Shown here piece by piece: positions 25,176 to 26,264 of a stretch of DNA of 31,321 bases. How positions within the stretch are numbered: the first letter of the stretch is position 1; each line of letters begins with the position of its first letter. Location of the stretch: IMG/VR virus record IMGVR_UViG_2700989487_000010; one strand, 5' to 3'. The position numbers and the translations under genes were made by a program. This stretch comes from a virus. Its lineage: Duplodnaviria > Heunggongvirae > Uroviricota > Caudoviricetes. The notes below the pieces were generated by a model. That model saw only the letters and a program-made list of their open reading frames with translations, was not told the DNA's origin and ran no database searches.

Positions 25176-25219
25176 GGTGCCCTCACAAATGAGGGCACCA
25201 TACATAAGCAATAGGCATA

Positions 25220-25262
25220 ACAGATCGATGCAATAAATACGATCGATAAAAACGATCGATTT
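25220..25262. promoter_or_regulatory. Cluster of three GATC sites (each as gatcgat) upstream of the com-like/methyltransferase operon
   Basis: GATC at 25223, 25241 and 25254 within about 35 bp, roughly 45-80 bp upstream of the com-like start; by analogy to the Dam/OxyR-controlled region upstream of the Mu mom operon. Confidence 0.4.
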
Positions 25263-25304
25263 GTTATCATATCGGCAGCAGTAACCACACAAGAGGTGCC
25301 GCAA

Positions 25305-25502
25305 ATGACGCAAAATGTACGATGCAAAAATTGCAACAAACTACTTGCCCGCGCCTCATTTCACTACATTGAAATAAAATGTCCGCGCTGCAAAACACTT
25401 AACCAGATAACGAGAGCCATCGAGCACCCCACACACATGAGGAGTTATGACCGTGGGGATCGCAATCCAGCACCAACCAGCACATACACCGGAACACACT
25501 AA
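25305..25502 (+). CDS. Com-like zinc-finger protein (Mu Com family translational activator)
   Basis: ATG at 25305 with AAGAGG RBS; translation MTQNVRCKNCNKLLARASFHYIEIKCPRCKTL... parallels Mu Com (MKSIRCKNCNKLLFKADSFDHIEIRCPRCKRH...) including both CxxC pairs; 3' end overlaps the start of the downstream gene. Confidence 0.75.
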   Translation: MTQNVRCKNCNKLLARASFHYIEIKCPRCKTLNQITRAIEHPTHMRSYDRGDRNPAPTSTYTGTH

Positions 25503-26238
25503 GGTTTATCAGACTGACAATGCCACGCTCTGTCGTGGGAATGCGCTGGAAATATTGCCGCTGATTGAGCCAGAAAGCATTGATGCCTTAATCACTGACC
25601 CGCCTTACAGTTCGGGTGCGACACACAAGGCCGGACGCACCAACCAGGGCAGCCATGCAAAATATCTGAACGGCGAGAACCTTCACCGCTTTGATGGGTT
25701 CGCGGGTGAAAACATGGACGCCCGTTCGTGGGCTTACTGGACACAATTATGGATGGCACAGGCACACCGCGCAGTCAGGCCGGGCGGTTATGCCCTGGTA
25801 TTTACTGACTGGCGACAACTACCAGCTTTAACCGATGCGTTTCAGGCCAGTGGCTTTACATGGCGCGGCATCATTGCGTGGAACAAAGGGAGGGGGTCAC
25901 GAACACCACATACCGGGTATTTCCGGCATCAGTGCGAATACATCGTCTGGGGCAGCAAAGGCCATTTAGATAAATCGCCTTCGGGACCGTTCGACGGCTG
26001 CATGACGTTCCCGGTTATCTCGTCAAAGAAAATGCACCCGACCGGAAAACCAGAAGAACTAATGGCGGAACTGGTCAGGACAGTGAATAGTGGCGGAACA
26101 GTCCTTGATCCTTTTATGGGGTCAGGGACAACGGGTGTGGCTGCACTGAAAGCAGGACGCAAATTTATTGGTATAGAAACCTGTGATCATTATTTTGATG
26201 TAGCAACACAACGGCTCAAAACGGCGATCGAACCATAA
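25447..26238 (+). CDS. DNA amino-methyltransferase (N6-adenine or N4-cytosine; beta-class motif order), apparently orphan
   Basis: 263-aa ORF with GAGGAG RBS; catalytic motif IV DPPY near the N-terminus (ALITDPPYSSG) and AdoMet-binding motif I near the C-terminus (DPFMGSGTTG); no adjacent restriction endonuclease gene in the window. Confidence 0.85.
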   Translation: MTVGIAIQHQPAHTPEHTKVYQTDNATLCRGNALEILPLIEPESIDALITDPPYSSGATHKAGRTNQGSHAKYLNGENLHRFDGFAGENMDARSWAYWTQLWMAQAHRAVRPGGYALVFTDWRQLPALTDAFQASGFTWRGIIAWNKGRGSRTPHTGYFRHQCEYIVWGSKGHLDKSPSGPFDGCMTFPVISSKKMHPTGKPEELMAELVRTVNSGGTVLDPFMGSGTTGVAALKAGRKFIGIETCDHYFDVATQRLKTAIEP

Positions 26239-26242
26239 GACA

Positions 26243-26264
26243 AAGCCCGCAATGTTGCGGGCTT
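26243..26264. terminator. Hairpin immediately downstream of the methyltransferase (aagcccgc / gcgggctt)
   Basis: Inverted repeat 5 nt after the stop codon; weak U-tract, so terminator function is uncertain. Confidence 0.4.

Follow-up and report, generated by a model that had tools for sequence, protein, structure and literature searches.

A Mu-type com regulatory cassette in front of an orphan beta-class DNA methyltransferase gene in a P2-like prophage of Escherichia coli

What is a Mu-type com gene doing at the end of a P2-like prophage, in front of a gene that is not mom? The question is raised by positions 25,201 to 26,264 of the 31,321-nucleotide virus record IMGVR_UViG_2700989487_000010 (IMG/VR, Caudoviricetes), the whole of which we call the window and which corresponds to the right arm of a P2-like prophage integrated in the chromosome of E. 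coli. A first reading of this DNA, made from the letters alone (the sequence-only reading), had noticed a small Com-like gene overlapping an amino-methyltransferase gene, with three GATC sites upstream, and had proposed a com-gated, possibly Dam/OxyR-gated, methylation module. This proposal is supported by our comparisons, and we think it likely that the locus is a self-contained modification module that re-uses the Mu com-mom regulatory cassette to control an orphan beta-class methyltransferase for anti-restriction.

The identity of the first gene is the easiest part of the answer. The product of the small open reading frame (ORF) matches the Pfam profile PF10122 (Zn_ribbon_Com) with 44.6 bits for a cut-off of 22.9 (E 9.5e-12), which bears out the CxxC...CxxC Com-like ORF noticed at this place; judged by its sequence, it is a member of the Mu-type Com family. 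Over 42 amino acids it shares 60% identity with Mu Com, and over residues 1-53 it is 65% identical to the Com encoded by a Mu-like phage that is integrated in Stx phages. The cysteines C7/C10 and C26/C29 (CxxC-N15-CxxC) are invariant in both of our Com alignments, while the C-terminal tail diverges. Copies that are 100% identical are present in many P2-like contigs of IMG/VR, and across some 30 loci of IMG/VR the com ORF is unbroken, with 97-100% conservation. A Shine-Dalgarno sequence (SD), AAGAGG at 25291-25296, lies 8 nt upstream of the ATG, and the 3' end of com does overlap the downstream gene as had been seen, by 56 nt (25447-25502). A contig labelled Vagococcus sp., a Firmicute (locus L009, NZ_JBQPOM010000071.1), has a com-methyltransferase cassette as well, its Com being 92% identical to that of E. 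coli; this assembly may be contaminated or mislabelled.

The second gene had been said to encode a beta-class DPPY amino-methyltransferase and not a Mom-type enzyme, and profile, motif order and fold all agree with this. The protein matches PF01555 (N6_N4_Mtase) with 113.5 bits; PF01555 is its only profile match, the Mom family being PF25680, and as it has no similarity to Mu Mom (BLASTP E 1.1) a relation to Mom was rejected. The DPPY (D51-Y54) and FMGSG (F223-G227) motifs are invariant in an alignment of 54 sequences, and motif IV comes before motif I, the order that defines the beta class. All residues that are invariant in the family in this alignment are retained (44/44). The AF2 model (pLDDT 88, pTM 0.88) has as its top Foldseek matches the catalytic domain of CcrM, the rotifer N4CMT, M1.HpyAVI and M.BceJIV (E 1e-14 to 1e-16, query TM-score 0.6-0.72), and M1.HpyAVI, CcrM and M.BceJIV are also its sequence matches in the PDB. 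With these solved enzymes it shares the fold and the motif order, but at 23-26% identity and with a helical insertion of its own; their specificity is not transferable to it. The insertion, of 35-40 residues after DPPY (residues about 55-91, with lower pLDDT), is specific to the family, and the model has no separate target-recognition domain. A DPPY motif favours N6-adenine, and we think that the enzyme probably modifies N6-adenine; the nearest solved folds include both N6-adenine and N4-cytosine chemistries. No methylome or target-motif assignment for the family was found in the ST131 methylome, the P2 hotspot paper or the general literature, of which our coverage was incomplete.

The enzyme belongs to a large family (more than 7000 matches at E <= 1e-10), with phage members in Bordetella BPP-1, Burkholderia, Ralstonia and mycobacteriophages. 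Membership of the Hia5/Hin1523 family was rejected, the com-linked enzyme of Haemophilus (L017) being weakly PF02086 and a separate BLAST class. M.EcoGII has been described as a non-specific beta-class enzyme of 349 amino acids from lambdoid prophages, and its homologues are reported in enterobacterial phages (PMC5778455). Indirect information on a relation to it comes from a tblastn search (E <= 1e-20) of 50,697 phage records, which gave only a handful from Escherichia: this genus is missing from the ten organism names listed, the smallest of which had 4 records. The same family as ours, at 62-79% identity, was also seen without com after an extended Ogr/Delta gene (L040, 2151-3295), and between holin and endolysin genes (L042, 2206-3591; L038, 2307-3786); the com gate is optional for this methyltransferase family. 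Finally, there is indeed no partner endonuclease beside the gene. The neighbours of com and the methyltransferase are an ogr-like gene, hok and a DUF2971 gene upstream and the host gene flk downstream; the methyltransferase is an orphan (solitary) one, without an adjacent cognate restriction endonuclease, and a partner endonuclease or other defence partner was rejected because none is present among the neighbouring genes.

The control region is where the likeness to Mu becomes specific. The three GATC sites reported upstream of com (at 25223, 25241 and 25254) are part of an OxyR-type operator (Table 1), and their 18/13 spacing is identical to that of Mu Pmom (L002, 660/678/691), with ATAG 12 nt before the first GATC in both. 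The arrangement GATC-N14-GATC-N9-GATC occurs once in the window and in none of 100 dinucleotide shuffles; the window is poor in GATC, with 77 sites versus about 121 expected from composition, and its next tightest triple spans 119 bp. We scored the OxyR consensus, which we take to be ATAGnTnnnAnCTAT-N7-ATAGnTnnnAnCTAT, over the whole window. The three highest scores (15, 15 and 14 of 20) all lie within 25211-25260; in 30 shuffles a score of 15 is never attained, and the Mu site itself gives 13. The operator aligns with those of the Mu, Yersinia, Salmonella and Citrobacter cassettes and of K-12 agn43 with a mean column identity of 70%. The cluster is not private to this locus: it is kept, with 18/13 or 13 spacing, in diverged enteric com cassettes (Yersinia, Salmonella, Citrobacter, Mu-like phages), and accompanies nearly all enteric com cassettes whatever their cargo. 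Three sites (18/13) are found in the window type, Yersinia, Mu and two Mu relatives, and two sites (spacing 13 or 18) in some others; the cluster is absent from Pseudomonas, Haemophilus, Stenotrophomonas, Ralstonia and the other non-enteric com loci surveyed. We also noticed natural variants in which com and the methyltransferase are intact: a 31-bp deletion between GATCGAT repeats leaves one GATC in L009 (2440-2500), no GATC is present in L071-L073 (1440-1503 in L071 and L073), and GATC II is mutated in L052. These variants are ready-made mutants for Dam/OxyR dependence.

A sigma-70 promoter is predicted within the operator, with GATC II in its -35 element and GATC III in its spacer, and it is the sole promoter-like site found in 24300-26500. 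An element resembling TGnTATCAT/TATAAT is kept 8-9 nt past GATC III in Yersinia (L036) and Salmonella (L044). Sites for two phage activators were looked for. The P2 late-promoter activator Ogr has a site that we take to be of the form TGT-N12-ACA; there is no match upstream of com, the only one nearby being inside the com coding sequence, the total in the window is below chance, and Ogr control of the unit was rejected on this ground. The C dyad of Mu, presumably TTAT-N6-ATAA with a 19-bp spacer (a form taken in part from the Mu sequence), has no match with up to one mismatch within 25200-25305. As both the dyad and the stretch matching the Mu spacer and -10 are absent, control by the C activator was likewise rejected. 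With no Ogr or C site, the unit therefore looks autonomous; its layout consists of a terminator, the sole promoter-like site, two genes and a terminal hairpin. The strong terminator after hok is predicted to insulate the unit from upstream transcription and is kept in the Salmonella, Yersinia and IMG/VR copies, and the GC-rich hairpin past the methyltransferase stop is the probable end of the transcription unit.

A second layer of control would lie in the messenger. In Mu, the Com-binding hairpin adjoins a translation inhibition structure whose stem holds the mom GUG start, and a bipartite Com RNA motif, GAGNNCC(N2-3)GAGNNCC, has been derived by SELEX (Nowacka et al., PMC6483171). The window sequence GAGAGCCAUCGAGCACC (25412-25428) matches this motif exactly, one match being found in the window versus 0.05 expected. 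At the com/METHYLTRANSFERASE junction the Com target motif runs straight into a predicted inhibition hairpin, which encloses the SD GAGGAG (25439-25444), the AUG at 25447 and the in-frame GUG at 25453. It is present in the minimum free energy and centroid folds, with -14.3 kcal/mol for the hairpin alone versus -9.5 for its Mu counterpart, and both start codons have a probability of being unpaired of 0.00, exactly as the Mu GUG. A hairpin over the methyltransferase ribosome-binding site, which RNA folding had been proposed to reveal, is thus present, at 25427-25458 and with both start codons paired.

The junction is also conserved as RNA. The pattern GA(A/G)NNCC-N3-GAGCA(C/U)CCCAC...GUGGG is kept across 23 unique enteric-phage junctions, in which only the 3-nt loop spacer varies; the cargo behind them is Mom, a C5 or a beta-class methyltransferase, and in every case it is in frame with the GUG. 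In Salmonella (L044) this GUG is the sole possible start of the homologous methyltransferase. Mu, B3, JD024 and Smp131 have an equivalent CC-N3-GAG, 26-32 nt upstream of the start of the cargo gene. Moreover, the codons for Ala38 (GCC), Glu40 (GAG) and Pro42 (CCC), which underlie the Com site and the 5' arm of the hairpin, are single-codon in 17/17 diverged com genes, versus 2-5 synonymous codons for each of the 15 conserved zinc-finger codons in the same genes. This synonymous-site invariance is an independent sign of selection at the RNA level. Combined, motif, fold and codon usage argue that the com-methyltransferase junction is homologous to the translational gate of Mu. An Rfam scan found no family covering the junction, its only match being a sub-threshold one to sok upstream of hok (24768-24926, 47.4 bits, E 6e-9).

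How widely is this arrangement used? Com homologues were gathered from genome and viral contig collections with a three-sequence Com alignment, giving 90 unique upstream-plus-com sequences. The gene that follows com encodes Mom in Mu, JD024 and many Mu-like contigs, adenine methyltransferases of the D12/alpha class in B3, Acinetobacter, Undibacterium and the Hia5-like group of Haemophilus, C5-cytosine methyltransferases in the Mu-like phage in Stx phages and in Citrobacter braakii, and beta-class PF01555 enzymes in the window locus, Salmonella, Yersinia, Desulfovibrio, Smp131 and Ralstonia. A few com matches, mostly in metagenome-assembled genomes of Firmicutes, are followed by unclassified or seemingly uncoupled genes; some in Firmicutes, with a thiolase or a large unknown ORF behind com, were not counted as coupled. 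Two enteric loci mark the boundary of the exchanged unit sharply: L003, with a C5 cargo, and L074, with Mom, share 94% identity over the stretch that begins 200 nt upstream and ends nine nucleotides past the GUG (GUG+9), and only background identity beyond. To judge from such alignments, enteric phages exchange the com cassette as a unit, the cargo being swapped just after the GUG. The C5-cytosine cargo (PF00145) is an observation in its own right (L003, 2061-3194, in the Mu-like phage in Stx-converting phages; L010, 2517-3707, in Citrobacter braakii); we found no mention of it in the com literature that we examined.

The sequence-only reading held that the layout copies the Mu com-mom operon, and this is true of one part and not of another. 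What stands is the ATAG-N8-GATC-N14-GATC-N9-GATC operator, the overlap of com with the cargo gene and, as in Mu, a CC-N3-GAG directly 5' of a CCCAC/GUGGG hairpin holding the cargo GUG (PMC6483171). What does not stand is the promoter: the C-activator dyad is missing, and the operator overlaps the predicted promoter, whereas that of Mu is upstream of its promoter. GATC III is 51 nt from the com ATG here versus 78 in Mu (about 27 nt are missing), the cargo is a Rossmann-fold beta-class methyltransferase whereas that of Mu is the Mom acetamido-transferase, and the element carrying the module is P2-like, not Mu-like.

We propose that the module would work as follows. The sigma-70-type promoter would lie inside an OxyR-type operator that carries three Dam sites; OxyR would bind to unmethylated, and possibly also to hemimethylated, GATCs and keep the promoter off, and full Dam methylation would exclude OxyR. 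The bicistronic mRNA would yield Com first, the methyltransferase SD, AUG 25447 and GUG 25453 being locked in the hairpin. By homology with Mu, Com may then bind the adjacent CC-AUC-GAG, the hairpin would open, and the enzyme would be made. It would methylate phage DNA, and progeny could escape restriction in new hosts, as Mom allows for Mu, while the double gate would keep a potentially harmful genome-wide modifier off at other times. A late, anti-restriction role fits because the same methyltransferase family sits in late/lysis operons of other phages (L042, L038), and because com with its methyltransferase is part of late structural operons in KS5, Smp131 and B3. Both the Dam/OxyR dependence and the Com dependence of the module are inferred.

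Several points weigh against this reading and should be acknowledged. The evidence for the module is comparative throughout. Of the OxyR consensus that we scored, the literature corroborates the format only, ten specified nucleotides per half-site (PMC4856963); the com promoter is predicted from a consensus match only; and some close relatives (L009, L071-L073, L052) keep com and the methyltransferase without the full GATC cluster. The short Com-binding hairpin (GAGC/GCAC, with an A-A mismatch) is weaker than that of Mu (AUGC/GCAU), and the fold class fixes neither N6-adenine versus N4-cytosine chemistry nor the target sequence. As to timing, no Ogr or Mu C site ties the promoter to the P2 late programme, expression could instead take place in the lysogen, and the agn43-like operator raises the possibility that it could be bistable.

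A first rival explanation is that of a phase-variable epigenetic switch for lysogenic conversion, and not of late anti-restriction. On this account an agn43-type operator lies over a constitutive, activator-independent promoter, and competition between Dam and OxyR after each replication gives heritable ON and OFF lineages, the ON cells carrying extra genome-wide methylation. The operator does align with that of K-12 agn43 (flu), a Dam/OxyR phase-variation locus (PMC4856963). Both have ATAG-N8-GATC, followed by spacings of 19/13 in agn43 and 18/13 here, and a CGATCG-N7-CGATCGAT core is common to both; the agn43 operator, however, lies at, and immediately past, the start annotated for the IsrC/agn43 leader RNA, whereas ours overlaps the predicted -35 and spacer. 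The predicted promoter with its extended -10, free of an Ogr or C site, and the moron-like architecture at the prophage end beside attR are also in its favour. But the same operator serves a strictly late lytic function in Mu, related prophage methyltransferases are silent in lysogens (Hin1523/Hia5, PMC3299994; M.EcoGI/II, PMC5778455), other members of this methyltransferase family belong to late lysis cassettes, and the presence of a Com gate argues that leakiness is costly. We regard this switch as unlikely. A bolder and improbable form of it joins two claims: that the com-methyltransferase unit is a Dam/OxyR-driven bistable one, an agn43-like phasevarion borne by a prophage and not based on repeat slippage, in which ON lysogens carry the extra methylation once past the Com gate, and that the com cassette is a portable two-layer safety switch which enteric phages fuse at the GUG to any DNA-modifying enzyme. 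As a separate observation, CGATCGTTT(A/T)TATCGATCGATAAG is nearly identical between K-12 agn43 (L127, 206-260, in the cryptic prophage CP4-44) and the com-C5 cassette of Citrobacter (L010, 2425-2470), which suggests common ancestry or strong convergence of the agn43 and com-cassette operators.

If the com-gated module is nevertheless preferred, it has still to be asked whether Com itself is needed, and this brings in a further point against our reading: ribosomes translating com traverse the hairpin, and coupling in cis could open it without any binding of Com. One may thus hold that Com is dispensable, that the methyltransferase is translated by cis coupling or directly from AUG 25447, and that com is the remnant of a hitch-hiking cassette. 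Indeed, the com stop (25500-25502) is downstream of the hairpin, which com translation must unfold, in the versions from E. coli and Yersinia a further AUG precedes the conserved GUG by 6 nt, and enzymes of this methyltransferase family work without a com gene in other phages (L040, L042, L038). Mu has the same geometry, however; an intact com, conserved as described above in about 30 IMG/VR loci, and its presence with the module in 150 complete E. coli genomes are difficult to reconcile with a mere remnant; and the synonymous-site invariance of the Com target is not required by cis coupling alone. We therefore find this explanation quite doubtful. That a recombination of Mu-like with P2-like phages left the locus behind as an inactive relic, without current function, we consider very improbable: its site among accessory insertions (hok, DUF2971) at the prophage end and the operator deletions of some relatives (L009, L071) would fit such a relic, but both ORFs are intact, the methyltransferase keeps every family-invariant residue and has a confident model, and the module is carried by an isolated, plaque-forming phage, Chuche, and kept together with hok in Yersinia at only 72% protein identity.

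How much of this is new? Here the sequence-only reading needs correcting. Control of a methyltransferase other than Mom by com is no new rewiring and is already published: in FluMu (Hin1523), Pnm1 (Nma1821) and Hia5, a Com homologue lies directly upstream of a non-specific adenine methyltransferase in the mom position (Drozdz et al. 2012, PMC3299994), these enzymes are silent in lysogens, a silence for which Com-type control was proposed as the explanation, and in the Pseudomonas phage B3 the pair ORF47/ORF48 likewise has a methyltransferase behind com (PMC3299994). A Com/PF01555 pair overlapping by 23 nt is moreover annotated in the P2-like Burkholderia phage KS5 (gp21/gp20; Lynch et al. 2010, PMC3091744). 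Nor was the pairing at the window locus unrecorded, Com and a DNA methyltransferase being given by existing annotation: a near-identical locus in E. coli E110019 is labelled by PGAP as a "Com family DNA-binding transcriptional regulator" and a "DNA-methyltransferase", and in phage Chuche the module is annotated as "gpCom control of modification" and "DNA methyltransferase". The PGAP name (as used in NZ_CP035751.1) is misleading, since the published function of Com is that of an RNA-binding translational activator.

The known pairs nevertheless differ from ours. The FluMu, Hia5 and B3 enzymes are Dam-related (alpha/D12), with DPPY near residue 190, whereas ours is of the beta class with DPPY at 51; their loci have no GATC cluster, and com and the methyltransferase do not overlap in Haemophilus. 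KS5, Stenotrophomonas Smp131 and Ralstonia YO188_2 share with our locus a P2-like phage, overlapping com and methyltransferase genes and a PF01555 enzyme (43-46% identity), but their modules lie inside late structural operons (in KS5 and Smp131, as in B3, both genes are embedded in one), lack a GATC/OxyR operator, have other junction sequences and are known by annotation alone. We found no description of a full Mu/agn43-type operator on a beta-class methyltransferase in a P2-like E. coli prophage, nor of the sharp cargo-swap boundary at the GUG or the synonymous-site evidence for the RNA elements, in a literature that we covered incompletely.

As far as such alignments go, the comparison shows that the control logic of Mu mom, a methylation-sensing operator and an RNA-binding zinc finger that unlocks a hidden start, is a mobile cassette and not a peculiarity of Mu: among enteric phages, Mom, C5-cytosine methyltransferases and beta-class amino-methyltransferases all stand behind one and the same cassette, in Mu-like as well as P2-like genomes. 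If the enzyme has broad specificity, it would be a ready-made anti-restriction function and possibly a tool enzyme like Hia5 and M.EcoGII. Should lysogens express the unit, E. coli methylomes could gain variable methylation from it, which would explain silent "orphan" methyltransferase genes in SMRT surveys. As to its frequency, 150 of 5426 complete E. coli genomes (~3%) have a single match covering at least 80% of the query.

Table 1. Positions of the com-methyltransferase unit, its control elements and the other features of the window
Feature	Positions	Strand	Remarks
OxyR-type operator	25211..25260		ATAG-N8-GATC-N14-GATC-N9-GATC; spacing, consensus scores, alignment
GATC sites	25223-25226, 25241-25244, 25254-25257		18/13 spacing
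Predicted sigma-70 promoter	25243..25270	+	-35 TCGATA (25243-25248), 16-nt spacer, TG (25262-25263), -10 TATCAT (25265-25270)
com, 65 aa	25305..25502	+	ATG 25305, stop 25500-25502; CCCC zinc ribbon, putative translational activator
Predicted Com RNA target	25412..25428	+	GAGAGCC-AUC-GAGCACC; core CC-N3-GAG 25417-25424
Predicted translation-inhibition hairpin	25427..25458	+	CCCCAC (25427-25432)/GUGGGG (25453-25458) outer stem plus inner stem
Orphan beta-class (DPPY) DNA amino-methyltransferase, 263 aa	25447..26238	+	PF01555
GC-rich hairpin	26243..26264	+	4 nt past methyltransferase stop; 9-bp stem, 6 GC pairs; still inside prophage
Intrinsic terminator after hok	25141..25168	+	10-bp stem, 6 GC pairs, then TCTTTTTGGT
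hok toxin ORF	24915-25055	+	Pfam HOK_GEF 33.8 bits
Ogr/Delta zinc-finger (ogr-like) gene	24463-24723
DUF2971 gene, 278 aa	23482-24318	-	between gpD and ogr-like gene
gpD	22118-23359
Serine recombinase gene	15861-16478		adjoins tail-fibre and tail-fibre-assembly genes on both strands
Tail-fibre/assembly gene	14011-14538	+
Tail-fibre/assembly gene	14567-15100	-
Tail-fibre/assembly gene	15103-15441	-

The surroundings of the unit are those of a prophage end. Along the window, the capsid, lysis and tail genes are followed by gpD, DUF2971, Ogr/Delta, hok, com, the methyltransferase and the host genes flk and yfcJ. The methyltransferase is the last prophage gene before attR, because homology to the K-12 chromosome begins only at 26347. 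Directly upstream of the com unit is a hok/sok-type type I toxin-antitoxin locus (24768-25055, + strand), and in Yersinia kristensenii (L036) hok, com and the methyltransferase travel as one group. In the stretch that separates the hok terminator from the operator we noticed a perfect 7-bp hairpin, GCCCTCA-CAAA-TGAGGGC (25179-25199), which is kept in Salmonella and several IMG/VR copies and replaced in phage Chuche. The DUF2971 gene resembles a further accessory (moron) insertion at the same prophage end. Finally, at some distance from the com unit, the tail-fibre region at 14011-16478 looks like a host-range inversion module reminiscent of the Mu G segment with Gin.

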